Shown one piece after another: positions 1,770 through 25,759 of a DNA stretch of 32,088 bases. Source of the DNA: a virus. Positions within the stretch are counted from its first letter, which is position 1. Every line of letters begins with the position of its first letter. The notes beneath the pieces were generated by a model. It saw nothing but the letters and a program-made list of their open reading frames with translations, ran no database searches and had not been told where the DNA came from. Position numbers and translations under genes: made by a program. The DNA lies in the IMG/VR virus record IMGVR_UViG_3300021168_000018. One strand, given 5' to 3'.

Positions 1770-2441
1770 CTAAACCGTGCCATCATCTCCGAGAAACAGG
1801 AAACGGCTATCAATCATGCCGACCTCAAAGCGGGAACGCGACTTGAAACGGTAAACTTCCATCTGGAACGACTGCCCAGATGCCGGATTCTCTTGGATGA
1901 TTTCCAAGGGGTCGCGGCGCTGAAAGACCAAGCACTTCTTCGGGTCGCCAAGAATCCAAACTTTGGAAGTCAGGAACCTGGATACCAGAAGCTTGTACAA
2001 GCCTTGCAGCGGGTTCACCGTGTTGACGTAACCCGTAGCGTCAGAGGACGCGGACGGAACAGACGGCTGCAACGTAGAATTCAGCAGCTTGGCTCCCACG
2101 AACTTGTCGATTGGCGAAACCAATAGAGTGTTCGGAGAGACCAAGAACTTGTTTCCAAGTGGGTCCGTAATGTTCATCAGCGAAATATCTGCCGATTCTA
2201 GGTTAGCTTGAGACAGACGCGTGAAAGTGGCAGGGCGATTGCCCTTCGGTAGAGTGTTGTATGTGCCGTTGCCCACTCCGCCAACGCCTACTGTATCGTT
2301 GTTGAAAGTCACATCTGGGTCGACAGTGACCCCCTGGACCGTGAATCCAGTGCCGATAATCTTCCCGATCACGTAAATTTCTTCCATGATCTTGAAGTTT
2401 TCGCCCATCTGGGATGCACGGTTCTTAATTTGTCCCGTCTG
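1770..2441 (-). CDS. Major capsid protein, exon 2 (223 aa; Mu gpT-like, HK97 fold)
   Basis: QTGQIKNRASQMGE...PNTLLVSP...VNPLQG...WILGDPKK...FQRRDPLE...YRFKSRSRFEVGMIDSRF resembles the gpT-like capsid C-terminal half. The first 39 codons of the track ORF are intron sequence. Confidence 0.9.
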   Translation of the reverse strand, partial: QTGQIKNRASQMGENFKIMEEIYVIGKIIGTGFTVQGVTVDPDVTFNNDTVGVGGVGNGTYNTLPKGNRPATFTRLSQANLESADISLMNITDPLGNKFLVSPNTLLVSPIDKFVGAKLLNSTLQPSVPSASSDATGYVNTVNPLQGLYKLLVSRFLTSKVWILGDPKKCLVFQRRDPLEIIQENPASGQSFQMEVYRFKSRSRFEVGMIDSRFLFLGDDGTV

Positions 2442-3303
2442 CATTCTGTTACTTGCTAACCCTGCGACAACTAGCAAAACTATCGCAAGGCGGACCACCT
2501 GTTTCCAGTGGTCTCTACTTGTCACCAAGCAGTTCGGACTATATCTTTTCGGAGTCATGCTGCCCTCCGAGTCTGGCGTGTAGTCTCTACGGATTTCATG
2601 AGTTTCTGAAAATGAGCCTTCCAGTAAGACCTATTTACATTTGTTCTAGTGTGACAAGGCACGCAAAGAGAAATCAAGTTGTACATCCAACAGTTCTTCT
2701 TATCGTAGTTTATGTGATGAACCGACAGACGCTTTGGGTTTTTCTTATCACACTCTCTACAAGTGTGATTGTCACGAACTAGAACTCTTCTCCTAAGCCT
2801 GCGAGTCCACCGTTCGTGATATGGATGCTCTGTAGAACCACCGTTCCATAGCGGATGATTCTTACCGGCCATGACACCGATGTGAGCCAAACTAAGAGCA
2901 TCCTTCTGAGCCTCTGTACGTTTCATACCTAGATTGTGAGAACCGTTTTCTCGATTATATCTCTTCAGTGACCTTGAAATTCTAGAGCCAACTTCAGGTC
3001 TCGAAGCTGGATTTCTCTTTCCAAGTTTAGATTGGCTAATTCTCTTTCGGCCTTCTTTCGTCTGACGACACATTTCTGTGCCATTCTTTTTGAAGAAAGC
3101 TATAACGGACTTACTGATTCGGCGACGGACGGAGGCTCTCTTAGCCGGGTTCTTGCTTCCCAGCTTAGAGGCCCTTATCTTGGCCTTTGTTGCTTCCGTA
3201 TGATGCCAACCTTTTCCTCTCATGATCTTTCCTCGGTATTGTCTCGTCAGTTGACGAGAGGTTCACCGATATAGCCAGATTTATCGACGACCAGTGTTAA
3301 CAA
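2442..3303 (-). mobile_element. Group I self-splicing intron (862 nt) in the MCP gene
   Basis: The 5' exon ends in U (GAU) and the intron ends in G (AGAAUG). IGS CUGGUCGUCG pairs with CGACGAU|CAG (P1 with U.G, plus P10). P3 CUGGC/GCCAG; P4 UCGGU/ACCGA; P5 CUCGUCA/UGACGAG; R GUAGAGACUACACG; S AAGAUAUAGUCC (P7 GACUA/UAGUC); P8 UCGGAG/CUCCGA; P9 hairpins with GUGA and GAAA loops. Removal restores the frame. Confidence 0.93.
2555..3223 (-). CDS. Intron-encoded homing endonuclease (NUMOD3 repeats + HNH)
   Basis: HHTEATKAKIRASKLG, QTKEGRKRISQSKLG and RTEAQKDALS repeats; GKNHPLWNGG; RDNHTCREC...VHHINYDKKN...NLISLCVPCH. The ORF starts after P4 and its last codons overlap P7/P8. Confidence 0.92.
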   Translation of the reverse strand: MRGKGWHHTEATKAKIRASKLGSKNPAKRASVRRRISKSVIAFFKKNGTEMCRQTKEGRKRISQSKLGKRNPASRPEVGSRISRSLKRYNRENGSHNLGMKRTEAQKDALSLAHIGVMAGKNHPLWNGGSTEHPYHERWTRRLRRRVLVRDNHTCRECDKKNPKRLSVHHINYDKKNCWMYNLISLCVPCHTRTNVNRSYWKAHFQKLMKSVETTRQTRRAA

Positions 3304-3711
3304 ATCGTCGTCAAACAATTCGCGCTCGAACGCCTCAATCATACCGAATTTCTGGTTGGTCAAGTGGCGGTCGAGTCCAACTACTGGATTGTCCTGGAAC
3401 TCTTGACCACGATCAACTCTCTTCGGTAGATTGGGACGGAACAGCGGAGCGTAATACTCTTGGAAGCGGCGGGATGCCACTTCTGTGACTAGATCAGGAT
3501 ATACGACCGGGACCGTGTTGTAACTGTTGATTGCATAAGTTTGGATACCCGCCCTCAACAGTTGGCCGAATGCAGACTCAGCATTAGCTTCCCGCAACCT
3601 AGTAGCCTGATTGTAGACAGACTCACGGAGGCGTTTGAAGCTGAGCTGAGGGCTGAACCAATCGATCTTGGCTGCGACCTCTTCCCATGGACCTACTGGA
3701 CGTGTGCTCAT
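3304..3711 (-). CDS. Major capsid protein, exon 1 (136 aa); spliced product 359 aa
   Basis: SD GGAGG; LREANAESAFGQLL...KFGMIEAFERELFDDD resembles the gpT-like N-terminal half. The spliced junction reads ELFDDD|QTGQIK. Confidence 0.9.
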
Positions 3712-4266: not shown

Positions 4267-6822
4267 CTACTCGTCGTCTTTCTTCATGGGCACGCCAAGT
4301 TCGGCCAGCCCTTCTTGGAGATCAGAGTTCTGCCCGGATGTTCCCCAGGATGCAAATCCGCCTCTGGCTCCACTGCCTTCAACTGATTCTTGTAGACGTG
4401 ACAAAGCGCCTTCCGTAGCAGACTCTAGGAAGTACGCCGATTCCTTGATTTTCCTGATTTGCTGCTTGACCGTCTTGCCGAACAGTTGAGGTAGCAAAAC
4501 GTTCTTGGCGTTCTCAGGAATAATTTCCTTGTTGACCGCTTCACGGAGCAATCTGCGAGCGGTATCTCCAGAATGGATGTAGAACAGTTTCCCGCGGAAC
4601 ATCTGGATTCTGTCCTCTTTCTTGGCAACGGATTCGCGGAGACGCCTGACCAGACCCGCCAGATGTTCGATGCGGCGATTCGCTTCTCTGACGATCGGCT
4701 TGGCGACTCGTGCTTGACGGCGATTACGCGCGAAGCGGGAAGTCTTCAGCTTATAGGACTTGCCCACACCTGACGTGGATTTGTCCTGTTTGCCAAAGTC
4801 TTCATCGCTATCGTCATAACCGCGAGTGGGATCTGCTCCCTTGGGAAGTGCGCTATGCCCAGAGTGCCCGAGTCCCCCGGCATAAGACGCTTTCTTGATT
4901 GGAGCCCCTTGACCGCTGTCATCCGCTTCTCGTGACAGACGGCGACCGCGACTGGTACGTACTGGACGGCGGCGATTGCTTGCTTCAGCTGCTACGTTTG
5001 GACGCTCGGTATCAAAGCCTTCATCTTCGAACGCTTCATCCATGTCGTCCATGTCATCGTCGTCGTCATCCATATCACCATCATCGTCGCCTTCTGTGGA
5101 AGCCACAGTGCGTGAAGAACCTGGAGCGCCTCCACCGGCTGGCTGACCTCCGCCCCCGCCCATTCCACCTGCTTGCGGAGGCATTCCACCACCCATTCCA
5201 TCCTCGTCTTCGTCCTCCATGCCTTCGTCTTCAAAGCCTTCCATGCCCTCATCCTCAAGACCTTCCATGCCTTCGTCTTCGATCCCCTCTTCAAAATCAT
5301 CGTCTGATTCTGAGGAAGCCACTCGCCGGCGATTGCCAGAAGCCTTGACCGTTTGATATTTGCCGTCACCGCCGTAGTCGTTGTGGTCGCCGATATCGCC
5401 ACGGTCCTCTTCGTCTTCTACATCGGCTTCTTCAAGCTCGTTTTCGGTGTCTTCTGGGTCCGGTTCGTCTACAATTTGATTGTCTTCCCCTGTCCCGTCT
5501 GAGGCTTGCAGTCGCCGCTTACCTTTGCGGAAACCGCGCTTGCCAGATCCGGCAGAGGCCTTCACGTGCTTTTTCGCCATTGATTCCTTACCTCCACTAG
5601 GATTGATGTTGCTGTACTGCTCTTCGTTGGACTGACCCGGACCCTTGCCTGAAATAGAAGCAGCGGCATGTAATGTTCGTGACGCCGCGAATGCCGCTTC
5701 TTTTACCTCGTCGGGATTGTCCGAGTTGTAAGCCGAAACGAGAGAGTCAGCAACTTCCTTTAGTTTCTCGGGACTAAGGGACCCTGCTTCTCTCGTTCTC
5801 TTGGATTTGCTGCCCATGATTCTATTTACTTTGTTCCTGCGACTTTCTAGCATCTTGATGAAACCGCCTCGTGCTGCCGGTTCTGTAACGACGTCTGCAC
5901 TGTCTACACGTTGAAATTCTTCTACATAATTGACTTCCTCACCGCCCATTTGACCTTGCCGAGTCTTGCCCACGGCGTTGATGGAAATGCCGAACAGGTT
6001 GACCGCCGTGGGGTCAGTCAAAATTGTGTCAATCATGCTGGTCAGCCACTTCGCGGAAGGGAAGAAGTGGAGCTTGCCATTGAGCCTAGTTTTGCCGGTC
6101 TTGGGATTCTTGTCTACGAAGCAGTCGCTGTACCATCCCACCAAATCCTTCATGCTGCGTTCTGGCAGCGTTTTCTCTGTGATCGCGTCTGGATGGTCGG
6201 CGTAGGCTTTGGCACCGTTGAAAACCTTGACGCCAGATTGGAGCGCTTCGGCGGAATAAAAGTTGCGATCGCGCGAATTTCCAATTCCCTCCTCTATGAT
6301 GGTTACTAGATAGACTCTGCCTTTGCCGTTTTGTTTCTTACCATCTAGAGGCTTACTAATTTCGTCTCTACCCTTTTCCGTAAAAGGGTGGTTGAATGAA
6401 GATTCACGTATCTTAGAAGCCTTGAAACGGCGGGATTCATGAGTCCCGGGCTCAGCGTTATCCCAAGGATGTCCGAATTTCGAGCTAAACTCTTTATCTT
6501 TATCTAACGCTCTTGCTCCGTTTTGTGCCCATGCACCCATCTTATCCCATTCTCTAGACGTCCCATCACTAGAGTACCAATTTCTAATCTGACTAACGTC
6601 TTTGTCGTTAGCATTTTGCCTTAGTCTACTAAGAGCATCTGCTATGTGGTCTTCAGATGGAATCTTTGGTCTACGATTAGTGGTGTTTCCAGAACCTTTT
6701 TTCCCGCCTCTAGGTCCTGAGCCTGGACCGCCAGCGCGTATTTGTCGTCCACGCTTATCGGAAATCAATCGCTGGACACCCGATCGTTGAAGCTGTCCCT
6801 GCGAACTTGCTGAGGTGGTCAT
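4267..6822 (-). CDS. Prohead protease-scaffold fusion (851 aa)
   Basis: Protease domain at about aa 165-325: VTIIEEG...NFYSAEAL...AYADHP...GISINAVG...SADVVTEPAARG (candidate catalytic His and Ser). It is followed by a long acidic/Gly disordered linker and a C-terminal helical scaffold-like region. The gene lies directly upstream of decoration and MCP. Confidence 0.85.
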   Translation of the reverse strand: MTTSASSQGQLQRSGVQRLISDKRGRQIRAGGPGSGPRGGKKGSGNTTNRRPKIPSEDHIADALSRLRQNANDKDVSQIRNWYSSDGTSREWDKMGAWAQNGARALDKDKEFSSKFGHPWDNAEPGTHESRRFKASKIRESSFNHPFTEKGRDEISKPLDGKKQNGKGRVYLVTIIEEGIGNSRDRNFYSAEALQSGVKVFNGAKAYADHPDAITEKTLPERSMKDLVGWYSDCFVDKNPKTGKTRLNGKLHFFPSAKWLTSMIDTILTDPTAVNLFGISINAVGKTRQGQMGGEEVNYVEEFQRVDSADVVTEPAARGGFIKMLESRRNKVNRIMGSKSKRTREAGSLSPEKLKEVADSLVSAYNSDNPDEVKEAAFAASRTLHAAASISGKGPGQSNEEQYSNINPSGGKESMAKKHVKASAGSGKRGFRKGKRRLQASDGTGEDNQIVDEPDPEDTENELEEADVEDEEDRGDIGDHNDYGGDGKYQTVKASGNRRRVASSESDDDFEEGIEDEGMEGLEDEGMEGFEDEGMEDEDEDGMGGGMPPQAGGMGGGGGQPAGGGAPGSSRTVASTEGDDDGDMDDDDDDMDDMDEAFEDEGFDTERPNVAAEASNRRRPVRTSRGRRLSREADDSGQGAPIKKASYAGGLGHSGHSALPKGADPTRGYDDSDEDFGKQDKSTSGVGKSYKLKTSRFARNRRQARVAKPIVREANRRIEHLAGLVRRLRESVAKKEDRIQMFRGKLFYIHSGDTARRLLREAVNKEIIPENAKNVLLPQLFGKTVKQQIRKIKESAYFLESATEGALSRLQESVEGSGARGGFASWGTSGQNSDLQEGLAELGVPMKKDDE
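5216..5287 (-). repeat. Three imperfect 24-nt tandem repeats encoding G(I/L/F)EDEGME
   Basis: GIEDEGME-GLEDEGME-GFEDEGME in the acidic linker. Confidence 0.8.
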
Positions 6823-6825
6823 AGA

Positions 6826-7026
6826 TTACCAGTTTGGATTCTTCCCTTTTAAGAGGTCGTTTTTCGGTTTCGCCCAAGAACCAAGAAAATTGTCGTACTG
6901 TTTGTTTCTTCCCCTGTCATTCTTGTCGACTTCCCCTCGCATCGGTGGTTTGAGCTTGAGATCAGGCGGCGGATCCGATATCGCAGCATTGACTCCAGGG
7001 TTCTTAGCAAAGGGGTCACGCGACTC
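6826..7026 (-). CDS. +1-frame extension (66 aa) of the 7025..7747 gene, reached by a predicted frameshift
   Basis: Open frame ESRDPFAKNPG...KGKNPNW* fills the gap and ends 3 nt before the protease ATG. It has no start codon with an SD, and its composition resembles neighbouring proteins. Confidence 0.7.
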   Translation of the reverse strand, partial: ESRDPFAKNPGVNAAISDPPPDLKLKPPMRGEVDKNDRGRNKQYDNFLGSWAKPKNDLLKGKNPNW

Positions 7027-7039
7027 AAAGACCCCTCCG
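7024..7039 (-). promoter_or_regulatory. prfB-like +1 programmed frameshift site
   Basis: CGG AGG GGT CTT TGA G: internal SD GGAGG, 3-nt spacer, CUU, UGA; same geometry as prfB AGG GGG UAU CUU UGA C. Confidence 0.72.
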
Positions 7040-7747
7040 GCGACTAGTACGCAGCGCTCGGTCGAAATTTCTCATCTTGCTTTCCATGGACATATTTCCA
7101 GCGGTGCGCTTGCGTTCATTAGACTGTGCGTCGTCCTGCGGAATAACTGACATGACGCGTGGCTTGACCGCTTTAGACAGCATTCCCACACCATGTCCAT
7201 AGCCGCGATTCTTCATGATATCTGGACGATCTTTGCTTTCGCCCTTTTTCGCGGCGTCGATAGCTTTCAGCTTCTTGCCCTGTTTATCCATATGGTCTTT
7301 GATGTGTTCCATGATGGCGACGCGGCGAGTCTCTGAAAGTTTGGGGTCAGACAGGAGCATTCTATGCTTGAAGATATGCTTGTTGTGGTCGTCGCCTTCC
7401 ATGGCTTCATTGATTCGGCCTAGCACAGTGAGCGTCTTGTGCTCGCCGTCTATGATATCGTCATTGTCATAGTTGTCGGCAGAGGTCTTGTCGTTGGTGG
7501 GAACGCCACGCGAGAATTGCGCTTGACCGGTCGGTACGGACGCTTCTCGCAATCTACGCTGCCTGATGGTGGGAGTTTCCTGAAATGTGTCGTTGAAATA
7601 TGACTCCGTGTCAGGTGGGAGGCGCTTTCTAGACTCTCTGATTCTGGACTGCTTTGTGACCGGGTTGCGACCGCCGAAACTGTCAATTTCAAACGTTGCG
7701 CCCATTTCCTCTTCTTGAGGAAGTGTGAAATCCGCCGTATTGAGCAT
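7025..7747 (-). CDS. Head-associated hypothetical protein (240 aa; about 306 aa if frameshifted)
   Basis: Charged, disordered; IRES, LREA, INEA, SMES motifs; SD AGGGAG. Confidence 0.75.
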   Translation of the reverse strand: MLNTADFTLPQEEEMGATFEIDSFGGRNPVTKQSRIRESRKRLPPDTESYFNDTFQETPTIRQRRLREASVPTGQAQFSRGVPTNDKTSADNYDNDDIIDGEHKTLTVLGRINEAMEGDDHNKHIFKHRMLLSDPKLSETRRVAIMEHIKDHMDKQGKKLKAIDAAKKGESKDRPDIMKNRGYGHGVGMLSKAVKPRVMSVIPQDDAQSNERKRTAGNMSMESKMRNFDRALRTSRRRGL

Positions 7748-7854
7748 TATTGATTCTCCCTAGAAGCGATTGGCGGGTGAGGAGGAAGATGGCCTGACCC
7801 GCCTTCTCGCTGTGCGCTGACATAGGCCAATGCGTCGTGGATTGTCTTTGCCAT
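7747..7854 (-). CDS. Small ORF (35 aa) MAKTIHDALAYVSAQREGGSGHLPPHPPIASRENQ
   Basis: Fills the gap, TAATG-coupled to the next gene, 15 nt downstream of an AAAGTAATTCTA motif; no clear SD. Confidence 0.5.
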   Translation of the reverse strand: MAKTIHDALAYVSAQREGGSGHLPPHPPIASRENQ

Positions 7855-7869
7855 GTTATGTTCGCTATG

Positions 7870-7881
7870 TAGAATTACTTT
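7870..7881 (-). promoter_or_regulatory. Candidate phage promoter motif AAAGTAATTCTA
   Basis: Intergenic member of a recurring coding-strand motif family. Confidence 0.5.
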
Positions 7882-7883
7882 CC

Positions 7884-8087
7884 TTAGAATCTAAATCCGT
7901 TGCCAGTGAGATGGCCGGTCATGTTCAGGAAGAACAGCAGGCAAATCAGGAAAAGGACCAGTCCAAGTATCATTTTCAGAGTTGGGTCTAATGCCCATCC
8001 CAGTTTTGCCATGCCCCATTGCAGAATCAGAACGATGATGACCACGCAGATTACGAAGACCACGAACTCGACCATGAACCCTATCAT
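7884..8087 (-). CDS. Small two-TM membrane protein (holin-like or Thivi_2564-like)
   Basis: Two hydrophobic helices separated by KLGWALDPTLK; SD AAGGAG. Confidence 0.65.
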   Translation of the reverse strand: MIGFMVEFVVFVICVVIIVLILQWGMAKLGWALDPTLKMILGLVLFLICLLFFLNMTGHLTGNGFRF

Positions 8088-8108
8088 TTCGTCTCCTTTA
8101 GGCTGGTT

Positions 8109-8747
8109 CTAAAATTCCTTGATGACTACGCCAGAGGTTTCTTGCTTTCTTGGTTGCGGCGGCATGTAGACGCCGGGATTCTTCCAGCCATTGATGCGCT
8201 CGACACCCTTGTGTTGATTGTTGATGAAATCTCCCATCATGTTGTATTGCTCGGAGTCGTCGTCGCGATTGGACTCTTGCGTGCGAGATTCGTTATTGTG
8301 TTGCGACCATGCTATCTTGAACGCGCCAGGAACGCCAACTTTCTTCTTGAGTTTTCTTACTTGGTCTTCACGACCTGGAGGCGCTGACTCTCGTCTAGAT
8401 TCCCCACCCTGAGAATACCCTTTGTCGTGCATCTTCTGAGCATACTTTCCACCCTCTACATCGTAAGGCAATTTCACCATCCTATATTTTCCACCTATTT
8501 TCTTACGAGTGTAGTAGTGAGTCGGATGTCCATCTTTATCTTTACCTACATCACGATGTCGTGGTCCACTCCCCGGTCCGCCTTCAGCGCCCTCGCGCTT
8601 CTTCACGTCAGCATATCGCGGATCTACGTAGCCTTCGTTCGTCTTTGGTGCTTGATCTTTTGGGGAAACGAATGGATTGCCCTCACGCTGTGAGGCCCGA
8701 CGCGCTCCGGTCCCGCTCGCTATCGTCCGTCTCCCAGACCGGTCGCC
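8109..8747 (-). CDS. +1-frame continuation (212 aa) of the 8683..9921 gene; head-associated, contains a GGPGSGP module
   Basis: The track's GTG start (8828) has no SD and lies 146 nt inside the upstream gene; no Met occurs until mid-ORF. The frame is +1 at the CTT C site. Confidence 0.7.
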   Translation of the reverse strand, partial: GDRSGRRTIASGTGARRASQREGNPFVSPKDQAPKTNEGYVDPRYADVKKREGAEGGPGSGPRHRDVGKDKDGHPTHYYTRKKIGGKYRMVKLPYDVEGGKYAQKMHDKGYSQGGESRRESAPPGREDQVRKLKKKVGVPGAFKIAWSQHNNESRTQESNRDDDSEQYNMMGDFINNQHKGVERINGWKNPGVYMPPQPRKQETSGVVIKEF

Positions 8748-9921
8748 GAAGGGACCTCCGCATACTGGATTCTTTGGTGCGAGGCTGGCGGGTGACCAAA
8801 TCTGGCTCGACTTGGCGGCCTGCTCCACGTGGGAATTCGTGACCTAGACCGTCGTCGATTCTGCTGCGAGTGTTGGATTCTCGGCCGAAATTGGCGATGC
8901 GCTTGCGACGTTTCGCACTTGCCATCATCGGCTTATTCGCGTCTTGGGGATTGAGCTTGACCGGGGGAGCGTTCGGGTCCTGGATATCCTGACTCGGCTG
9001 CTCGGATTTCTTCGGGACAGGGACAGGAGATTGCTTGCCACTGATGCCTGGAGTGGCTTCGGCAGAAGCTTTTAACCCTCTGCTGTTAAGATACTGATGG
9101 AGTTCTCCAGCTTGGCTTCCTTGGCCAATCAGTCTTTGTCCTCCAGATTGCCCGACTTTGAAATGGTCCCATACACCTTTATGCAGCGTATTCTGAGAAC
9201 CATTCATAGCGATGATATCCTTACCTTTTTGAAACTGATGGTAAGGTTGGGTTTTTCCATCATCATCCTTGAAACTAGTAGTTTTGACTTGCTTGAACCC
9301 ATGTTTCTGTAGAACCTTCGCCTTTAGCCTATTCCATTTAGGAATTTTGCTTCCACTAGATTTCTCTTTAGGATGTTTCCCACCTTGAGGACCAGAACCT
9401 GGACCTCCTTCTCCCGCTTCACTCTGCTGCATCGACTGTCCCTGTTCAGGTTGCTGCTTTCCCTGTTTCGCTTGCTGCTTCGCCTTCGTAAAGATGTCTT
9501 GGTGATGTTCCATCGCGGCGACATGAGCGTGGCCGAGGTCAGAGTCCAGACCAGCCTTGTCCGCCTGCTTCTTGTGAAACATCATGGCGGCTTTGTTCGC
9601 TTTCATGATTGCTTTCGGTGGCAATTCGCCCATCTGGTCGCCGCCGTTCTCGAACATTTCCTGCAAGCGATTCCCTTCGCGAGTATACATCTTAGAAGCG
9701 CGGAAGTGCGCCAATCCACGATTGGTATTGATGCCATGTTTCGCAGATTGACGCAGGTGGAATTCCTTGGCTTCCTTGATGACCTGAGCGCCTGCTCTGT
9801 CTTCGCGCAATCGCTTGATTTCTGTTTTCTGCTTCTTCATGAAGTCGCCAAGCGTCGGCGGCGTATAGTTCGCGCCCGGTTCATCTTCGCCAGCACAACC
9901 AATTCCAAGATAGTGGCTCAT
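8683..9921 (-). CDS. Head-associated basic protein (412 aa; about 603 aa if frameshifted)
   Basis: LRED, IKEA, LQEM, QSEAGE-GGPGSGP, LKAS, GRES, TKES motifs; ATGA-coupled to the upstream gene. Confidence 0.8.
   Translation of the reverse strand: MSHYLGIGCAGEDEPGANYTPPTLGDFMKKQKTEIKRLREDRAGAQVIKEAKEFHLRQSAKHGINTNRGLAHFRASKMYTREGNRLQEMFENGGDQMGELPPKAIMKANKAAMMFHKKQADKAGLDSDLGHAHVAAMEHHQDIFTKAKQQAKQGKQQPEQGQSMQQSEAGEGGPGSGPQGGKHPKEKSSGSKIPKWNRLKAKVLQKHGFKQVKTTSFKDDDGKTQPYHQFQKGKDIIAMNGSQNTLHKGVWDHFKVGQSGGQRLIGQGSQAGELHQYLNSRGLKASAEATPGISGKQSPVPVPKKSEQPSQDIQDPNAPPVKLNPQDANKPMMASAKRRKRIANFGRESNTRSRIDDGLGHEFPRGAGRQVEPDLVTRQPRTKESSMRRSLRRPVWETDDSERDRSASGLTA
8746..8760 (-). promoter_or_regulatory. 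Second prfB-like +1 frameshift site
   Basis: CGG AGG TCC CTT CGG: GGAGG + 3 nt + CUU-C, with a CGG Arg codon in the A site; the +1 frame is the 8109 ORF. Confidence 0.62.
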
Positions 9922-10495: not shown

Positions 10496-11197
10496 CTATG
10501 ATACAATTACGACACTGTCAGCCATCATATCGAACGCCGCGAGTTTCCCAGAAAATCCCGCTCCCAAGTCTATTCCCAGTTTACCAGCTCTGCGAAACGG
10601 CTGTCTAAATGGGACGTGGGAAAATACCACTGTCTTGTTTGGAATCTGCCTGCCGTCCTGTAACCACCAGTTGTTCTCCCCGAACACGATTTCTTCCGGT
10701 CTACTTAGGTCCCTGCCATACAGAGTTGGATGGCCTCCGTTGTGAGTTAGCACGAAAGGGAACACGCCGTCCTCGTACCAGTGATTGGGCTCTGTCTCTT
10801 GCATGAACCTGATATGTGGCTCTGGAATTTTCAGCGGTATCTCAGCTAAAGCGGTCCCTTTGCCAGACATGTATATCAATTTCTTGTCGTCGGCGTAGCT
10901 TTTGAAAACCCTTCCGCCGTTCATGTCGCCCCAGATTTTCTGGTGGTACAGAGATGGATTCTCGCTGATGCAGTGACCGAATGCCCACTCATAGCACCCC
11001 ATTAGAAATATCGTGTTGGGCAGTTTCTTCCTGAACGCTATCAGGTAGTCTAGAACGCCTTTGCTATCCGAACCCGGACCAAGATAAGAGCCAAGGAATA
11101 CGATGCTGTCGTCAATAGTTGGCGCTATCTTGTCCATCAGCTTTTTCAGCAAGTTGAGTTCACCACGTACATCTGCTATTGCGAATCGTCTTTGCAT
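10496..11197 (-). CDS. Ser/Thr phosphatase-family (calcineurin-like) protein with degenerate active site
   Basis: Motif order matches lambda-PP/ApaH-like enzymes: AIADVRG, FLGSYLGPG, LMGCYE, THNG, VVFSHVP, GIDLGA. Confidence 0.8.
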   Translation of the reverse strand: MQRRFAIADVRGELNLLKKLMDKIAPTIDDSIVFLGSYLGPGSDSKGVLDYLIAFRKKLPNTIFLMGCYEWAFGHCISENPSLYHQKIWGDMNGGRVFKSYADDKKLIYMSGKGTALAEIPLKIPEPHIRFMQETEPNHWYEDGVFPFVLTHNGGHPTLYGRDLSRPEEIVFGENNWWLQDGRQIPNKTVVFSHVPFRQPFRRAGKLGIDLGAGFSGKLAAFDMMADSVVIVS

Positions 11198-11568
11198 TAG
11201 AGTGTCGAGTCGTTCTTGATGGTCAATAGCCCATCGTCTGCTGAGATTAGAATCAGGCCAGTATTGAAAGTCACTTGAACGGAATATCGAAACACGCCGT
11301 CTTTTCCCATGCTTGGCGGAGCGGCTAAGTCGCCAGCCACGAATACGTATTGGACAATCCCGCCGGAAGGATTCGTGATTGTCATATTCACTTGTTTTGA
11401 TGGAGGCAGTGGTTTGCTCTTGGTGTCACAGATAACAAACGAGAGTTGGACCTGTGTAGCGCCTGACAGATTGAGCGGCGTGGCCGCAGGGGGAGTTTGG
11501 CTCTGGTCTATGTTCACCAGATTCAGCTGGAGAGTGTTGCCGACTTCTCCGATTGTTAGGTCTGCCAT
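11197..11568 (-). CDS. BppU N-terminal-like virion protein (123 aa)
   Basis: GEVGNTLQLNL...PLNLSGA...NPSGGIVQYVFVAGDL...GVFRYSVQVTF pattern. Confidence 0.6.
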   Translation of the reverse strand: MADLTIGEVGNTLQLNLVNIDQSQTPPAATPLNLSGATQVQLSFVICDTKSKPLPPSKQVNMTITNPSGGIVQYVFVAGDLAAPPSMGKDGVFRYSVQVTFNTGLILISADDGLLTIKNDSTL

Positions 11569-12916: not shown

Positions 12917-15900
12917 TTACCTCACAATCACGATTCGCATGACGATGCCATTCACTATCACAGTCTCTATCAACTCTTCGTTGAATTGCAGAGTTCCTGC
13001 CACTGGATTGTAGAATATGATGTTTCTAATGATTATGCTGCCAGGAGGCGTGGACAGCGCGAACTCCGTTGGTGATGTGAATATATCTCCAAGTGTGAAC
13101 GTTGGAGGATTGGCTCTCCTATTCCATACTGTGAAGTCCGTAGCAAGTCCATTCGCTAGAGTCGCCAGTGTAGGATTGATTTGGTTGACGTAGTCAGTAG
13201 TTGCGAATTTTTGTGGCAAAGCGTTTGGAGGCACGAACGCCAGGAACGCCGTGCTGGTTGGTAGCAATGCCAGAGTCGGTCTGTCTTGACTTACGAAATT
13301 AGGTACAGCATATTTCAGAGTGACAGCTTGCTTGCCGTCAGTAGATTGCCAGCCAGAAATAGTGAACTGAGAGAGCAGCTTGGTCAAGCCGAAATCATTT
13401 TGCTCTGTAGGACCGGAGTAGGTGAGAACTACAGCACTCTGGCCGATTGTCGATGACCAGTCCGCCGGGTTGGGAATGATTGGCGATACCACGGTCACAC
13501 TGACGTCTTCCACAGCGACAGAAAAATATGTCGAGGAGAAGAATTGGTTTTGTAACGGGACAAACGAAATTGGCAGCAATACCCGTGTAGGATTGTTCTG
13601 AGTTACGAAGTCTGATGCAGCATATTTCAAAACTACAGCACTCTTGCCATCTGTAGACTGCCATCCAGGTAGGAATGTTGTGGCTGCTATCGTTATGCCA
13701 AACTTAGCAGGAGCAGTCCAATCTGTAGCAGCATATCTCTGGGGTTGAGCATTAGGCACAGTCAAGTCATACAAGAAAACTGGCAGCGTGCCCAAGTCTG
13801 CTTTAATCTGACCGTTCCAGTCTGTAGGAGCATATTTCTGAGGTTGAGCTAGGATTGCGTCGTATGGAATGAACCCTAGCGATGTTAGAACAAGCGTTGG
13901 ATTAGCTTGGCTTGAGAAATCGCATTGCAGATAGTTCAGCTCTACAGCATTCTGACCAGTAGTTGGAGTCCAGCTCTCGATTGTCGGTGAAACCACTACG
14001 ATCAAGCCTAGTCTAGTTGGGACAACCAGCCCCGCTTCAGCATATCTCAATACGACCGCATTTTGACCTGTCGTAGAAGTCCAGCTATCTACTGTCGGAG
14101 TAGCAGCCTGAATCAACCCAAATCTTGTTGGAGCAGTCCAAACAGGAGCAGCGTATCTCTGTGGCTGAGAATTGACCCCTAATGTCTCTTGAGAAAGTGC
14201 TTCATTGATTGCTACAGCATCTGCTGGACCAGTACTCGTGTCGCCCATTGAGTACCAATCGAATTTAGGAAAATAAACATCTTCTCCACGCCATGAAATC
14301 GGTGATACAGCGCTCGTAGGAGAGACGACTGCTGGATTTATATCTGACCTGGAACGCGCATACCCTCTTAGATTTTGGACAGCGCCTATCGTTGGGCTCC
14401 AACCAGAGATAGTCACAACTATAGGAGTCGTCAAACCAAACTTCGCAGGCGCTGACCAATCCACAAGCGCATAACTCTGAGGCTGCGACTTTATAGCGTC
14501 GTACAATAAGAATCCCAGAGAAGTCAATACATGAGTCGGCAAAAGTTGATTCACGAAATCAGGTTGAGCGTATTTCAATACTACAGCGTTCTGTCCAGAC
14601 GTTGGAGTCCACTCAGACACGAATGTGGTCGCTGGAGCTATGAGACCGAATTTAGCAGGAGCACTGAGATTGTCTCCAGGCTGGAACTTGTTAAATTCAG
14701 ACCATGGAATCTCTGCAAGTCCAGACAAGACTGGCAGCGTAGCGAGAGTAGGTTTCACCTGATTTATGAAATCTGTTAGAGCGTATCTCAAAATGACGGC
14801 GTTCTGACCTATGGTCGAAGTCCAGCTATCTATCGTAGGCGTTGTTGGAGCTATGACACCAAACTTGGCAGGAGCAGAGAATGTGTCTCCCTGTGCGAAC
14901 TTAACGAACTCTGACCACGGTATTTCAGCCAGACCAGAAAGCAGAGTCGGAAGAGTAGCAAGAGTCGGCCTAACTTGGTTCACATAGTCTGATTTAGTGT
15001 AGTTTAGAACTATAGATTTCTGTCCATCTATGCCATACCACTGTGATACGAAAGCAGCCGGTAGATTGAACTTGGCGGGTGACGACGAGTAGTCTACAAG
15101 AGCATATTTCTGAGGTTGAGCTAGGATTGCGTCGTATGGAATGAACCCTAGCGATGTTAGAACAAGCGTTGGATTAGCTTGACTTACAAAGTCCGTAGTA
15201 GCGTATTTTAGAGTTACAGAAACTTGCCCATCCGTAGATGTTCTTCCTGGCAGATATGTCACAGCCGCCTGAGCAGTAGGAATTAGAACAGGTTTGATAG
15301 CATCTACAGGTGCAGAATACGTGAGTGGTTGAGAATTTTGTCCGTCTGTGCTCTTCCAGCTGTCTGTCGTGAATATCGGCGGCGGAGCAGCTGGACCACC
15401 AGAAGATATCGATCTAGCGTACCCTGATATTCTTGAAATACTTCCAATAGTTGGAGTCCAGTTACTAAGAGTTATCGGAGCAGACGTAGGTGGGTTCGAT
15501 GGACCGATATCTGGAAAGACTCTAGCGTAGCCCCTAATTTTGAATGTGCTTGTCGGCGGATACTGTCTAGGACCGGTCATCATTGGAACTGTGACTATGT
15601 TCTGTTGTGGTAGTGTCGGTTTAATCCACAAATCTGGTGAAGCGTGCATCTGCGGTTGCGCGTTCTTAGCTGCCTCTGGATAAACTTTCCATCCTAACAT
15701 CGGCACTGTAGGAATTAATTGCTGAGGAAGGGTAGGCTTCACGAAGTCTGATGAAGATGTAGCAAACGGCGCGACTACAGTCCTATCATAGCCACTACCA
15801 ACTCCAATTCTTTCAGTTGTCATCCAACTAGCAGGCATAGAAACAACAAGTTCTATGACACCCATCGCCCATGCGGTATCAGTGTTCGTGTAAGCAACGG

Positions 15901-16450
15901 TTAAACTTCCAGGAGCAGTTGCAGTATTATACCCTTGAGCTCCACCTATCAGAGTTGTAGCGTCTACGTGCCCAGCATCAGTTCCTGTACTAATAGTGAA
16001 GGTTCCAGTGCCAGAACCTGCAAATCCAGCAACGATATAGCTGCTAGGATTTTTCGTTGTTAGAGATTGCGTTGGATTTGCGGAACTTTGAGTAGAGCTG
16101 GCAGCGTTTCCGACACCAGAAGCTCCTGTGAAACTAGAAGCTTCAGCTACGAATATAGAATTTCCTGAAAGATTAATAGTCACCGTATTAGAAGCATTTG
16201 CTGTCTTGGCAAAGGAAACCCAAGTCTCCAGCCTGACAACTGAACCATCGTTTATAGTCGCAGTAGGGATATTGAAATATTTATTCCCAGCTAAGTCCGT
16301 GACAGTTGAAACTATAGAACCGACTGTTATAATCATCACTTGAACGACCACGATGTCCCCAGCTTTCGTGTTGAAAGCCGCAGTCGTTCCAGAAGAGGTA
16401 ACAGCACTACTCTGGGCTACTCCTCCATTGGCGTTGAATGCTATCGCCAC
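12917..16450 (-). CDS. Large repetitive virion/fibre-like protein (1177 aa)
   Basis: N-terminal ~200-aa beta-sandwich-like domain, then P/T/S-rich degenerate repeats (WxxTxGQxAVxLKYAxxDFVxQxxPT; QPQxYAxxDWxAPAKFG). Confidence 0.7.
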   Translation of the reverse strand: MAIAFNANGGVAQSSAVTSSGTTAAFNTKAGDIVVVQVMIITVGSIVSTVTDLAGNKYFNIPTATINDGSVVRLETWVSFAKTANASNTVTINLSGNSIFVAEASSFTGASGVGNAASSTQSSANPTQSLTTKNPSSYIVAGFAGSGTGTFTISTGTDAGHVDATTLIGGAQGYNTATAPGSLTVAYTNTDTAWAMGVIELVVSMPASWMTTERIGVGSGYDRTVVAPFATSSSDFVKPTLPQQLIPTVPMLGWKVYPEAAKNAQPQMHASPDLWIKPTLPQQNIVTVPMMTGPRQYPPTSTFKIRGYARVFPDIGPSNPPTSAPITLSNWTPTIGSISRISGYARSISSGGPAAPPPIFTTDSWKSTDGQNSQPLTYSAPVDAIKPVLIPTAQAAVTYLPGRTSTDGQVSVTLKYATTDFVSQANPTLVLTSLGFIPYDAILAQPQKYALVDYSSSPAKFNLPAAFVSQWYGIDGQKSIVLNYTKSDYVNQVRPTLATLPTLLSGLAEIPWSEFVKFAQGDTFSAPAKFGVIAPTTPTIDSWTSTIGQNAVILRYALTDFINQVKPTLATLPVLSGLAEIPWSEFNKFQPGDNLSAPAKFGLIAPATTFVSEWTPTSGQNAVVLKYAQPDFVNQLLPTHVLTSLGFLLYDAIKSQPQSYALVDWSAPAKFGLTTPIVVTISGWSPTIGAVQNLRGYARSRSDINPAVVSPTSAVSPISWRGEDVYFPKFDWYSMGDTSTGPADAVAINEALSQETLGVNSQPQRYAAPVWTAPTRFGLIQAATPTVDSWTSTTGQNAVVLRYAEAGLVVPTRLGLIVVVSPTIESWTPTTGQNAVELNYLQCDFSSQANPTLVLTSLGFIPYDAILAQPQKYAPTDWNGQIKADLGTLPVFLYDLTVPNAQPQRYAATDWTAPAKFGITIAATTFLPGWQSTDGKSAVVLKYAASDFVTQNNPTRVLLPISFVPLQNQFFSSTYFSVAVEDVSVTVVSPIIPNPADWSSTIGQSAVVLTYSGPTEQNDFGLTKLLSQFTISGWQSTDGKQAVTLKYAVPNFVSQDRPTLALLPTSTAFLAFVPPNALPQKFATTDYVNQINPTLATLANGLATDFTVWNRRANPPTFTLGDIFTSPTEFALSTPPGSIIIRNIIFYNPVAGTLQFNEELIETVIVNGIVMRIVIVR
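13828..13909. repeat. 82-bp exact direct repeat, copy 1
   Basis: Identical to 15100-15181; encodes QANPTLVLTSLGFIPYDAILAQPQKYA. Confidence 0.9.
15100..15181. repeat. 82-bp exact direct repeat, copy 2
   Basis: Identical to 13828-13909. Confidence 0.9.
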
Positions 16451-19198: not shown

Positions 19199-21154
19199 TT
19201 AATGCGCTGGATAACAATTCGAAGAGTCAAAACTCAGCAGCGTTGCCGCGCCGTTCGTTGGCCCACCCATAACACTCAGGTAGCATACAGCAGCGGGAAT
19301 GTGATTGGCGTGACCCCCGACTCCTGAAATGTTCCCACTAGAAATATCCGGACCATCCGCAGGCCACGGGATAGTTGGTTGTCCAGTCACTCCCCACCAA
19401 GCCGGTTTCACAGTTAAGAAAAATGATGATGGTAGCGTCTGACTAGAGGGAACAGTATTAGCAAAACCATCAGTCAGCACTGTCGGAATTTCAGCATTGA
19501 CAAAACGAACACCTGGACTACTCACCACATCATAGTTTCCCCAACGTAAAAGACTTGTCGTTGTGTAAGCCTCACTAGCAGGCGCATCTCCAGCGTATCC
19601 TAGAGAATAAATCTGCACGTCATTGTTGCAGCTGGACGGACTCGGATAGGCGCACTGATACGTTGTGTGGTAGCCGGACGTTCCCAACACATTACCAACT
19701 ATGTTCCAAAAACGATTATAGGTGTAAAGAAGAATCGGATTCGTGTTTTGGTTCTTTCCGCCGCTGCTCCCGCCATTAATGTCTCGTCCGCTATAGTAAT
19801 TTCTGAAAACCGTGAAGAAATTAGATGTGCCATGGACGTCATCACCGATAGCACCGAAACCTTCATTGCCCTCAAATAAATTGTAAGCGTCCCCGCTACC
19901 GTGATGATAACCTGGACCGCTCTGTTGAAATCCAGTGTCACTTCCAGCTGGAGTTCCTGTGTAATAGTTGTCTATATCAAAATTGTAGTCCTGGACTCCA
20001 CCAATACAGCCCTCTTGCATGTAAGAGAACGCCATGTGTTGCGTGATGTTGTTCTCGAAAAGAACGTCTGCTCCTGCCCAACAAGAATAGACATAGTTAT
20101 TAGAAGTCGAAGCAGACCCAAAACCATAGCTATCTCTTATCGTAATGTTCTTCGACTGGTAGCCATAGAACTGATATGTCCCAGAACCATTCAGCCCTTG
20201 CCCAATAAAACGAATATTCTTCACCCACACGTTATAGCAATCGATGCAGAAAATATTCGAGAAGGCTGAATTGCTTCTAGCATCTAGTGACATGCTCTCT
20301 ATACCATCATTCTGAATAGGTAGGCCACTATTGCTCCACATCTGCGGAGTACGAGCGCCGGAAATATTTGGCATCCTTATTCCAGGAGAAATTCCTATTG
20401 TCCATGGTCCAGAACCAGAGATAGAAGTGATTATCTGTGGCTCTTCTTGCGTCGAAGGACGCCAGTTACGTCCGTTGCCAGAACCACCACCGCTACAATT
20501 GGAAGCCTGACAAACAAAAACCCCGGCTGCTGGAATTGTCGTATTGTCCAACTGATCTAAAAATATAAGACTACCGACTTGCAATCCTGCGATACTTCCT
20601 TTAGTGAATGTATTGATGGTGATACTCGTAGTCCCTACAGCGTAACCTCCTGTCCAACTAGCTAGATTGTTATAAGTCTGATCACCACCATCACCATTAT
20701 TTACGGATTGGAGACAGATATTAGCTCCACCAAATCCGGCGCAGCCGTTTGCGCCCACAGCGGAAGTGAACGTTACGAAAGTCGAATTCGCCCCACTACC
20801 TCTTAAGGTCACGTTGCTCTTATTAGCAAAGTCAATCATCGTAGTGATAGAAAATGATCCCGATCCAAGTAACACGAAATGGTTCGCTGCACAAGAAGCT
20901 ATCGCGCTGTTTATCGCTGTGGCTGTTCCAGAATATGCAGAGATTGTAGAACCACATTGCGTTCGAGTTCCAGTAGGATCTATAACTGCTCCAGCTTTAG
21001 ACCAATCGATAGCGCGAGTAGAAGCGAGAATTCCAGTCCAAGGTGGTCCAGAACTCGTCACAGTTATAGAAAGATTCGCCGTAGCTGAACCCTGTCCGTA
21101 TACAGGAATAAGTGAAAACAGAAATACAATCAAAGCAGACAACCATTTTTTCAT
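19199..21154 (-). CDS. Secreted right-handed beta-helix (pectate lyase-like) protein, putative polysaccharide binder or depolymerase (651 aa)
   Basis: Signal MKKWLSALIVFLFSLIPVYG|Q; TATAINSAIASC...VLLGSGSF...NVTLRGSG; Asn-ladder coils (NVWVKNI, NITIRDS, LFENN, NLFEGN); paired Cys. Confidence 0.8.
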   Translation of the reverse strand: MKKWLSALIVFLFSLIPVYGQGSATANLSITVTSSGPPWTGILASTRAIDWSKAGAVIDPTGTRTQCGSTISAYSGTATAINSAIASCAANHFVLLGSGSFSITTMIDFANKSNVTLRGSGANSTFVTFTSAVGANGCAGFGGANICLQSVNNGDGGDQTYNNLASWTGGYAVGTTSITINTFTKGSIAGLQVGSLIFLDQLDNTTIPAAGVFVCQASNCSGGGSGNGRNWRPSTQEEPQIITSISGSGPWTIGISPGIRMPNISGARTPQMWSNSGLPIQNDGIESMSLDARSNSAFSNIFCIDCYNVWVKNIRFIGQGLNGSGTYQFYGYQSKNITIRDSYGFGSASTSNNYVYSCWAGADVLFENNITQHMAFSYMQEGCIGGVQDYNFDIDNYYTGTPAGSDTGFQQSGPGYHHGSGDAYNLFEGNEGFGAIGDDVHGTSNFFTVFRNYYSGRDINGGSSGGKNQNTNPILLYTYNRFWNIVGNVLGTSGYHTTYQCAYPSPSSCNNDVQIYSLGYAGDAPASEAYTTTSLLRWGNYDVVSSPGVRFVNAEIPTVLTDGFANTVPSSQTLPSSFFLTVKPAWWGVTGQPTIPWPADGPDISSGNISGVGGHANHIPAAVCYLSVMGGPTNGAATLLSFDSSNCYPAH

Positions 21155-23939: not shown

Positions 23940-24194
23940 TCACAGCTTCTCTGGATACTGTAAAGGTACGAACCTGACATCATCAGATCCAGTCCCGTGT
24001 AGAAGTGGGGTGCCTGATGATGCGTTTGTAACAACGGTGTCCGCAGCAGCATTCACTAGTTTGCAATTTGTGAAATCATTGCCAGACACTTGGACAGCGA
24101 TGCCAGATTTGACCATCGCTCTGGTCGTAACAGGATTCAATGTAGAAGAAACTACGGTAACTCCGTCGCTCTTTTTCAATGTGGCAGTTGCCAT
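23940..24194 (-). CDS. Hypothetical protein (84 aa)
   Basis: SD AAGGAG; TAATG coupling. Confidence 0.7.
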   Translation of the reverse strand: MATATLKKSDGVTVVSSTLNPVTTRAMVKSGIAVQVSGNDFTNCKLVNAAADTVVTNASSGTPLLHGTGSDDVRFVPLQYPEKL

Positions 24195-25759
24195 TATGCA
24201 CTCCTTTTCTTCTTAAAGATAACTCGCCCGAATAGGCCGGATTTGTTTGCGTGTCTAAGTGCTTCCACTTGCTTCACTCTCCTGAGTTTCCCTTTGCTGA
24301 GAGCGTAGACAGGTATTTTCCTTTTCAGAGCATGAACTGTTTCACTGAACACCCCGGCTGTGAGACGCTTCCCTTTCGCTGGCTTGAGCACGAGGCGTTT
24401 AGATTTATCTATCTTCTCATGGAAATATCCCATGCCTAGCTCTGCGTGCTTCTTTGTCGTTGGAACGCTCACGCCTTCATTCGGGAATGCTTCTTGGATG
24501 CGGTCTATGTTCGCCTCTTCAGCGTCTGTATTGTAGTGAGACATTGGACGAGCGAAATATGTTTTCTTCGCTTCTCTGAGGAAGTTGCCCACTCTGGACT
24601 CGAAGGTCCTAGACGTTTTCATCTCTTTAGGCTTTAGAGCAGAGAGTTTATGACTTCCATTGCTATTGCTGCTCACAGCCATCCTATGACCGGCTGGCGA
24701 TTGTACAATAGAATGGATAGCTTGGACTGCTCCTTCTGTACCAGTCAATCGAGAGCCAACTTCTAAAACTTTCCAGCCAAGTTCCTTTAGATGCTCCAGC
24801 GCTTCCTCATGACCACCCTTCAACTCTTCCTTTTGTTGCTCAGGAGTCCGTGGAGTAGTTGGTTGATTTTGCTGCATCTGCTGAGCGGCTTGCTTCGCTG
24901 CTCTATCTTTCTGTGCCTGAGCAATCATATTCAATTGAGGCTGAGTGCGGCTGACGACCTGCATCATGTTCATTGTGCGCGGGTCGTTTTGCAGATTCTG
25001 CTGCATAGACTTTTGCTGATTGGTTTTGGCTGAACCGGCGTCTCTAGGATTTCTTACTCCCCACTTTTGACCCTTGACGCCATGCTCTCGCACTTCTGGA
25101 TTTTCCATTATGTCTTGGTGGTGACCCAGAATCGACTTGGTCATGTCCTGGTCTGTGCCACGACCGGCCATTTGTCCAGTGGTAGCGAGATACGATTCGT
25201 ACTCTGGTTTCTCGAAAACATCTTCTGGAAGCTGAAGTGATGCGCCTGCTCGTGACGCCACTAGTTTCTTCGTCGTGTGCTTCTTTACAAAAGCACGCTC
25301 CCTGAATTTCCACATTGGAATAGCGTCAATCCCACCGAAGAATTTGTCGTCATCATAATGTTGTTTGAAGCACCGTTTAGCAGCATCGGATGAGGCAAAA
25401 CCCAACATGACCTTGTCCTCATCAAATTCTGCTCCGTCTGGCGTGTTGCAATGAACGACGTAGGCGAAAGCAGCATCTTCGTTTGGTCCCACAAATACAT
25501 CAAGTGCGTCACCATCTACTCCTTCTGTGCCGGGGATGTATCCGTATGGCAGACGCATCTTGGTGCGCCACTCTTCGCCGTCGTCATCGACTCCCTTACG
25601 GACACTCCCCTTGCGATTCTCTATGCTGATTGGGATATTCTGGAACGTGGTCTTACCGTGGAGCTTACGATTTTCACGAAGGCGAATCATCTTCACCTTG
25701 AAATCGTGAATCTCCTTGGGTCCCTGGAGTATCGTCCGGCCACGATCGTCTACGTACAA
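24194..25759 (-). CDS. Multidomain (polyvalent-type) protein: inorganic pyrophosphatase-like domain + HGVKGQKWG module + NDT-like domain (521 aa)
   Basis: IPISIENRKGSVR...PYGYIPGTEGVDGDALDVFVGP...FDEDKVMLGF (phage PPase-like); VREHGVKGQKWGVR; C-terminal TYFARPMSHY...AGVFSETVHALKRKIPVY (nucleoside 2-deoxyribosyltransferase-like pattern). Confidence 0.78.
   Translation of the reverse strand: MYVDDRGRTILQGPKEIHDFKVKMIRLRENRKLHGKTTFQNIPISIENRKGSVRKGVDDDGEEWRTKMRLPYGYIPGTEGVDGDALDVFVGPNEDAAFAYVVHCNTPDGAEFDEDKVMLGFASSDAAKRCFKQHYDDDKFFGGIDAIPMWKFRERAFVKKHTTKKLVASRAGASLQLPEDVFEKPEYESYLATTGQMAGRGTDQDMTKSILGHHQDIMENPEVREHGVKGQKWGVRNPRDAGSAKTNQQKSMQQNLQNDPRTMNMMQVVSRTQPQLNMIAQAQKDRAAKQAAQQMQQNQPTTPRTPEQQKEELKGGHEEALEHLKELGWKVLEVGSRLTGTEGAVQAIHSIVQSPAGHRMAVSSNSNGSHKLSALKPKEMKTSRTFESRVGNFLREAKKTYFARPMSHYNTDAEEANIDRIQEAFPNEGVSVPTTKKHAELGMGYFHEKIDKSKRLVLKPAKGKRLTAGVFSETVHALKRKIPVYALSKGKLRRVKQVEALRHANKSGLFGRVIFKKKRSA

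Follow-up and report, generated by a model that had tools for sequence, protein, structure and literature searches.

In bacteriophage T4, the internal proteins IPI to IPIII and Alt carry a capsid-targeting sequence and are processed by the prohead protease gp21 (reviewed in PMC9026906). The protease gp245 of SPN3US cuts after A-x-E, and propeptides generally leave the head after cleavage, long ones being cut several times (PMC10052503). For the polyvalent proteins, the study of Iyer et al. (2017; PMC5512222) places the InPase domain in the set of effector domains and proposes that release is brought about by zincin-like peptidase domains. In this study, we present an in silico analysis of a recurrent heptapeptide, GGPGSGP (the tag), and of the small protein segments which it opens (the modules) in head proteins encoded by a stretch of 32,088 nucleotides (the window) of the IMG/VR virus record IMGVR_UViG_3300021168_000018. 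The window comprises bases 31496-63583 of a 91,991-bp viral contig which is estimated to be 65% complete. No DNA-level similarity of the window to cultured phages was found, and Rfam and tRNA scans of it gave no matches. Its genes are located on the minus strand, and the tagged segments lie within the head-assembly block (Table 1).

A sequence-only reading of the window had reported three copies of GGPGSGP, preceded by QIRA, REGAE and SEAGE, and all three are present at the positions described; a degenerate pattern for the heptapeptide matches the window three times and none of 100 shuffled versions. A fourth copy, preceded by EIQE, is located just outside the window, where it forms part of the C-terminal extension of the portal protein, which measures 1332 amino acids (G000:C1:70216-70235, where G000 denotes the genome of this phage). 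The serine codon is TCA, AGT or TCT in the three window copies and AGT in the portal copy, and most third positions differ among the four. Since the codons differ and both serine codon families are used, conservation acts at the level of the peptide rather than of a DNA repeat, as had been proposed. The QIRA copy belongs to protein A, which combines a prohead protease domain with an acidic scaffold-like part, whereas the REGAE and SEAGE copies belong to the open reading frames (ORFs) B and C. The statement that the proteins concerned are otherwise unrelated does not hold for the latter two (8109-8828 and 8683-9921), which represent two frames of one head-protein family that is encoded by a single ORF in many relatives. 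The proposed end motifs THES, GGES and LKAS proved approximately right, orthologues placing the module ends at ...GTHES(RRFK)↓ASKIRES, ...YSQG-GE↓S and ...LKASAE↓ATPG (arrows mark module ends here and presumed cuts below).

Orthologues differ by whole modules in both the protease-scaffold protein and the C/B protein, as the sequence-only reading had expected of exchangeable units. Judged from alignments, which included three related contigs designated G001, G002 and G003, the segments are real insertions that differ between sister phages. The insertion site of the protease gene lies directly after a conserved leader, ...GQLQRAGIQR.... In the window, it is occupied by GGPGSGP followed by about 95 amino acids; in G001 and G002, nothing is inserted and the leader continues into ASKIRES; in G003, an unrelated segment of about 95 amino acids begins with GVKGMKWGV. 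Among the other relatives, P0042 and P0044 have a head resembling the Pfam family DUF7211 (GVEGMKWGV in P0042), P0043 has two GGPGSGP modules, P0049 has FGHGGRPGQRGGS (aa 34-48) as a third glycine-rich head, and five further close relatives have no insert. The alternative opening peptides at this site in close relatives are GVKGMKWG, of the DUF7211-like kind, or GHGGRPGQRGGS. In P0043, the sequence GHLGRAG follows a few residues past GGPGSGP, and because the two are combined there, they may be halves of a longer motif.

The C/B family, for which no Pfam or PHROG match was found with ORFs C and B, comprises 37 members of 235-531 amino acids, in 23 of which a total of 31 tags occur at about eight sites. 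Variable insertions of at least 20 amino acids in the C family, not counting blocks that are simply the B half and hence absent from C-only sequences, are tagged at or near their start in 27 of 31 cases, and in a 28th the tag lies 32 amino acids inside. At the site of module C, 15 different modules, or none, are found across the family; P0032 has the DUF7211 head GKKGMKWGV where P0016 has GGPGSGP, and in P0026 the remnant consists of the tag with almost no body. Conversely, the body of module B recurs in the family member P0012 at another site (site 2), behind a GGKGSGR tag (phmmer E 1.7e-21). By these alignments, the same site takes different modules, the same module is found at different sites, and the tag comes and goes together with its module. 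Together with their presence in some orthologues and absence from others, this covers all three predictions of the proposal that the modules are exchangeable. The proposal that a KWG motif occupies a position equivalent to that of GGPGSGP is borne out too, as it takes the place of the tag at the same insertion sites of the protease and of C/B.

The Pfam family DUF7211 (PF23847) spans only 25 positions, and the core G-V-K-G-M/Q-K-W-G-V matches positions 11-23 of the model. Besides GVKGMKWGV in two G003 proteins, GKKGMKWGV in P0032 and GVEGMKWGV in P0042, the core is found as HGVKGQKWGV in a 521-aa InPase protein of the window, where it follows VRE as had been noted. All scores are below the cut-off of 27 bits, namely 16.5-18.8 bits for the window protein and 20.9 and 25.7 bits for the G003 proteins. 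PHROG matches of the InPase protein are to minor head, virion structural and DarB-like proteins.

The modules also stand out by their composition. The segments behind the tag had been described as basic, AT-richer and about 60-115 amino acids long; they measure 61-115 amino acids, with isoelectric points of 9.1-10.2. All four G000 modules have a GC content of 0.33-0.38 at the third position of their codons (GC3), compared to 0.43-0.66 in the flanks of the same genes (module A, 0.34 against 0.43 and 0.56; module B, 0.38 against 0.60 and 0.56; module C, 0.33 against 0.62 and 0.66). The genome mean in windows of 80 codons is 0.52 (standard deviation 0.10), so that these modules fall within the lowest 3-9%. 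The G002 modules have values of 0.34-0.44 compared to 0.61-0.64 in their flanks. The codon composition of the modules is foreign.

The bodies behind the tags are highly diverse, 32 of them representing 29 sequence types. A Pfam search with the bodies at E<=1 returned noise only, phmmer gave no match among all ORFs of 130 loci, a word-based homologue search with module C among longer proteins retrieved only module C itself, and PDB sequence searches with modules A and C were empty. Single-sequence folds of two modules are of low confidence (mean pLDDT 54 and 52): module A is predicted to be helical with low confidence, whereas in module C the tag and the next approximately 16 residues have a pLDDT below 50 (predicted disordered) and are followed by a helix and three strands with a pLDDT of 66-80. 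Several candidate assignments were rejected. A match of the portal module to PDB entry 6xi1 (E 1.3e-9) was treated as unreliable because its score adds up four repeats of about 10 bits each. A HicA-like or dsRBD-like nature of module C and the portal module found no support in Pfam at E<=1 or in Foldseek at E<=0.001. Homology between these two modules was not significant by BLASTP, and the similarity of the portal module to P0017 (E 0.005) is suggestive only. Nor are the modules inteins: they start with Gly-Gly and end with ...HES, ...GGE or ...KAS, and have neither a Cys/Ser/Thr start nor a His-Asn end followed by Cys/Ser/Thr.

The tag is not confined to this phage. A scan of viral contigs, which covered one codon class of GGPGSGP, yielded at least 134 matches in at least 120 stretches. 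Among the matches listed, 50 of 134 are located in the longest ORF at their position, many others being out-of-frame noise in GC-rich DNA, and the 33 ORFs scanned among them include portals of several families, MuF proteins, minor head proteins and head proteases, with ADP-ribosyltransferase (ART), NUDIX, topoisomerase IB, methyltransferase or M23 domains. In unrelated viral contigs, the tag is widespread among portals, MuF proteins and head proteases. Among the matches listed, tags of one contig share the residue that precedes them (P1; E, D, K, A or L), and this residue varies from contig to contig; P1 is identical in 24 of 38 within-contig pairs compared to 6.7 on shuffling (p<=5e-5). One portal carries six GGPGSGP-headed modules, five of which are preceded by Asp and one by Asn. 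In the searchable literature, no phage paper with GGPGSG, GPGSGP, KGMKWG-type strings or DUF7211 was found, and term searches of the polyvalent-protein paper (PMC5512222) and of a MuF-toxin paper gave no glycine-rich junction motif.

By tblastn, protein A matches capsid maturation proteases of phages of Arthrobacter and Microcystis. At E<=1e-3, 2256 relatives of its protease domain were found; the domain alignment shows an invariant H80 and, 70 residues on, an invariant S150. From sequence patterns and a modelled complex, we infer that this prohead protease cuts after Glu, just before the tag. The motif [LIVMF]-R-E occurs 17 times in head proteins, where about 4.3 occurrences would be expected, and its frequency elsewhere matches expectation; the InPase protein has four such sites (0.63 expected). 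RLRE↓S and RLRE↓A at the N-terminus of the capsid protein are kept in four of four genomes (this phage, G001, G002 and G003), and R-x-R-E↓A/S at the junction of protease and scaffold is kept in the same four. P1 is Glu in 26 of the 29 GG.GSG tags of the C family and Ala in the other three, with mostly S, A or G at P3; I-[K/R]-A precedes three C-family tags as well as the tag of protein A. DUF7211-like heads directly follow x-R-E-x, and E↓A or E↓S junctions are present behind the modules. The leaders ahead of the tags measure 30 amino acids in protein A and 36 in an ART protein described below, the remaining tags being internal. Structure prediction of the protease domain in complex with the tagged linker gave a score of 0.52, with 0.02 for the best of three controls, a partner pLDDT of at least 44 and agreement of the runs in at least 84% of contacts. 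This lends weak support and defines no interface: among solved complexes, 58 of 80 attain the mark applied (7 of them with values of at most 0.60), as against 2 of 110 mismatched pairs (both with values of at most 0.60), and these calibration counts hold only roughly, as the alignments were made in this analysis.

The explanation which we favour, if by a modest measure of confidence, is that head proteins of this phage carry tag-headed cargo modules which are released by a Glu-directed prohead protease. GGPGSG[P/R], the DUF7211-like G-V-K-G-x-K-W-G and, in one relative, GHGGRPGQRGGS would mark the N-terminal edge of small, fast-changing modules. Their hosts would be proteins built into the procapsid, namely the C-terminus of the portal, the N-terminus of the protease-scaffold protein, the internal protein C/B, the InPase protein and the ADP-ribosyltransferase, which would bring the modules into the prohead. 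There, the prohead protease would cut before the tag ([S/A/G]-x-E↓GGPGSG or x-R-E↓x-GVKG) and also at E↓S/A behind the module. Excision would restore the host fragments and leave in the head mostly basic peptides of 5-12 kDa with a glycine-rich N-terminus, comparable to the T4 internal proteins and possibly associated with DNA or ejected. The tag itself could serve as an accessible spacer at the cut site or, at the new N-terminus, as a signal for retention or ejection. Since it is constant while P1 varies, and since three unrelated glycine-rich peptides interchange at one site, the sequences favour a requirement on the side of the cargo over a role of the tag in the specificity of one protease. 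A broader version, in which GGPGSG[P/R], GHxGRPGxxGGS and the core of DUF7211 belong to a single functional class of portable, glycine-rich cargo-head signals, is rather doubtful in our view; the in-frame cassettes behind them would sit at protease-processing sites of essential head proteins and be removed post-translationally by the prohead protease, as a protein-level counterpart of inteins that uses the protease of its host, and would provide a plug-in slot for injected peptides or enzymes that are exchanged rapidly.

Several observations weigh against excision and cargo function. The best-supported cleavage site is [LIV]-R-E, whereas the G000 tags follow G-A-E, A-G-E, I-Q-E and I-R-A; these triplets therefore fit through P1 = Glu only, and one of the four has Ala. 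The G003 modules lack the low-GC3 pattern, the GGPGSGP module among them not being AT-rich. The bodies are, by sequence searches and structure prediction, orphans of low predicted confidence, which weakens the case for a cargo function. The suggestion that modules can insert into any head protein holds for the portal, the protease-scaffold protein and C/B and is limited by the wider protease family, where most N-terminal extensions are without tags: a long extension is present in 44 of 150 representatives, and only about five of these have any of the three head motifs. Finally, the cultured phages LMA2, RHph_TM3_14A, RHph_I72 and phiPSA1 have related portal or InPase fusions without the tag. 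Such untagged joining of domains, the absence of [LIV]-R-E before the tags and the predicted disorder of the tag with about 16 further residues would also be explained if the tags were flexible, inert linkers travelling with cassettes of common descent, and if the modules stayed attached as decorations or spacers. We consider this unlikely, as six to seven invariant residues encoded with both serine codon families across unrelated phages are unexpected for a passive linker, the preceding residue is phage-specific and mostly Glu here, and E↓small-residue junctions are found on both sides of the modules. Moreover, an insert of 100 amino acids between a conserved leader and the protease fold would be easier to tolerate if it were removed.

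Removal of the modules need not imply a function of the released peptides. They could be disposable, serving in the manner of propeptides as fillers or as aids to assembly before they are degraded and lost from the head, with the tag as nothing but a good entry point for the protease, and the general exit of propeptides and repeated cutting of long ones (PMC10052503), the hypervariable orphan bodies with low fold confidence and the nearly bodiless tag of P0026 would suit this distinctly improbable reading. Against it stand tags elsewhere that also precede recognisable enzymes (ART, NUDIX and TopoIB in other contigs) and, in this genome, a DRAT-like ART domain (aa 287-371) that follows a DUF7211-like tag at aa ~37; furthermore, the basic composition fits DNA-associated internal proteins, and the turnover of modules, together with their foreign codon usage, points to selection for novel content instead of filler. 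The peptide would be without any role if the motif merely formed a recombination junction at cassette borders that promotes swaps downstream. In tail-fibre genes of T-even phages, conserved motifs indeed promote the swapping of segments, and here swaps take place exactly at the tag and one body has been relocated from one site to another. This explanation is nevertheless very improbable: little DNA homology is left among the four copies, whose third positions mostly differ and whose serine codons come from both families; three unrelated peptides (GGPGSG, GVKGMKWG and GHGGRPG) serve one site; and a search for direct or inverted repeats or target duplications bounding the modules gave only short matches at chance level in the DNA, none of them convincing.

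Table 1 Features of the head-assembly region and related genes in the window
Feature	Position	Strand	Basis or remark
Major capsid protein, N-terminal part	3247-3711	minus	Two conserved RLRE sites (aa 28-30 and 39-41); reference for the likely protease site
Protein A, 851 aa: 30-aa conserved leader, tagged module, prohead protease domain (aa ~131-345), acidic scaffold-like C-terminal part	4267-6822	minus	phrog_15531 (head maturation protease), phrog_29592
Module A (aa 31-130), GGPGSGP start (6712-6732), ...GTHES end	6433-6732	minus	Orthologue comparison
ORF B, +1-frame continuation of the C protein, ...VVIKEF end as in single-ORF relatives	8109-8828	minus	Aligns with G002, G003 and single-ORF family members
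Module B, GGPGSGP start (8562-8582)	8400-8582	minus	Orthologue comparison
ORF C, 412 aa: conserved N-domain (aa 1-~155), tagged module, conserved GKQSPVPVP segment, conserved tail ...WETDDSERDRSASGLTA	8683-9921	minus	36 orthologues
Conserved 15-mer AGGTCCCTTCGGCGA, contains CTT-CGG-C	8743-8757	minus	Conserved reading frame passes from C to B; candidate +1 recoding site
Module C (aa 172-286), GGPGSGP start (9388-9408)	9064-9408	minus	Orthologue comparison
521-aa protein: InPase domain (aa 34-154), VRE↓HGVKGQKWGVR (25052-25084), 290-aa basic C-terminal part	24194-25759	minus	PF18823, E 1.2e-38

The junction between ORFs C and B is a candidate for a programmed +1 frameshift, through which two products, one short and one long, would be made. 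The two ORFs share 146 nt (8683-8828), with B in the +1 frame, and the 15-mer at which the conserved frame changes occurs once in the window (0 expected) and is identical in G001 and G002. Its heptamer CTT-CGG-C is like that of yeast Ty1. In G002, the B frame has no start codon ahead of the first tag. Many members of the C/B family are single ORFs ending in IKEF, and others end with the conserved tail WE[ST]DDSERDRSASGLTA.

Further observations concern the remaining head genes and their neighbours. The protease leader QGQLQRSGVQRLIS (6760-6822; QGQLQRAGIQRL in relatives) resembles FGQLLRAGIQTYAI of the capsid protein (3560-3600), just past the second RLRE, and on the basis of this similarity the protease may enter the shell through mimicry of the N-arm of the capsid protein. 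The major capsid gene is interrupted (1770-3711, minus strand): residues 7-152 of the intact G001 protein correspond to 3699-3262 and residues 139-358 to 2441-1773, the C-terminal part matches the Mu gpT-like family PF10124, and the approximately 0.8 kb between the parts contain an HNH endonuclease ORF (2555-3223); the interrupted gene gave no match to an intron family of Rfam. Outside the window, the portal gene (L005:6847-10845, minus strand) contains an HNH-endonuclease intein (CFSGDTEI...VFSHNS, approximately aa 269-591), and the portal has an N-terminal extension of about 270 amino acids with three KLRE sites. The large terminase, also outside the window, is split into two ORFs (L005:10871-14503, minus strand; ATPase 13244-14503, nuclease 10871-11518), between which the gene for the 388-aa DRAT-like ADP-ribosyltransferase is located. 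In this protein, a leader of 36 amino acids is followed by LTE↓HGVLGQKWH. Two proteins of 1177 and 651 amino acids (12917-16450 and 19199-21154, minus strand), which are tail-like or without annotation, show the lowest GC3 of the genome (0.24-0.31). Such low values are typical of horizontally exchanged receptor-binding proteins.

The theme of protease-processed head cargo is known from the T4 internal proteins and Alt, from the ejection proteins of giant phages and from polyvalent proteins; new are the insertion and exchange at the level of orthologues, the interchange of both tags at one site and the compositional signal. If the favoured explanation is correct, a simple sequence rule would identify packaged, possibly injected proteins of uncultured phages, including ADP-ribosyltransferases and pyrophosphatases, and essential head proteins could be regarded as carriers with defined insertion slots, which would point to a portable handle by which foreign proteins could be loaded into capsids. 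The link between GGPGSG and DUF7211 would in addition give this uncharacterised Pfam family a context, its motif being internal here, preceded by R-E-x and interchangeable with GGPGSGP at the same insertion site.

Compared to the known systems, the locus shares with the polyvalent proteins the presence of effector domains on virion proteins, such as the InPase domain (PF18823) found here and the InPase and 2H domains fused to portals in relatives. It differs in that the modules are small orphans and no MPTase was seen, domain scans of the tagged proteins giving no peptidase family except the prohead protease. With phiKZ gp175 and SPN3US gp245, the sequence pattern of S, A or G at P3 and Glu at P1 before most C-family tags is shared (PMC10052503, PMC5694885); the substrates in those phages are the portal, the capsid protein and abundant internal or ejection proteins, and propeptides are likewise cut at several sites. 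However, no conserved tag on the P' side has been reported there and the removed fragments are N-terminal propeptides, whereas the protease of the present phage belongs to another sequence family, is fused to a scaffold and has conserved [LIV]-R-E sites as well. The T4 internal proteins resemble the modules in being hypervariable, mostly basic cargo with a short conserved signal, loaded into the prohead and trimmed after Glu, both steps being presumed here, and the packaged ADP-ribosyltransferase Alt has a parallel in the DRAT-like enzyme with its leader and tag. There is no sequence similarity to T4, whose cargo is encoded by separate genes, while the modules are mostly inserted in frame inside essential head proteins, namely the portal, the protease and C/B. 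In T4, the conserved signal is a leader that is removed, whereas in the phage described here the conserved peptide lies beyond the presumed cut and would remain on the cargo.

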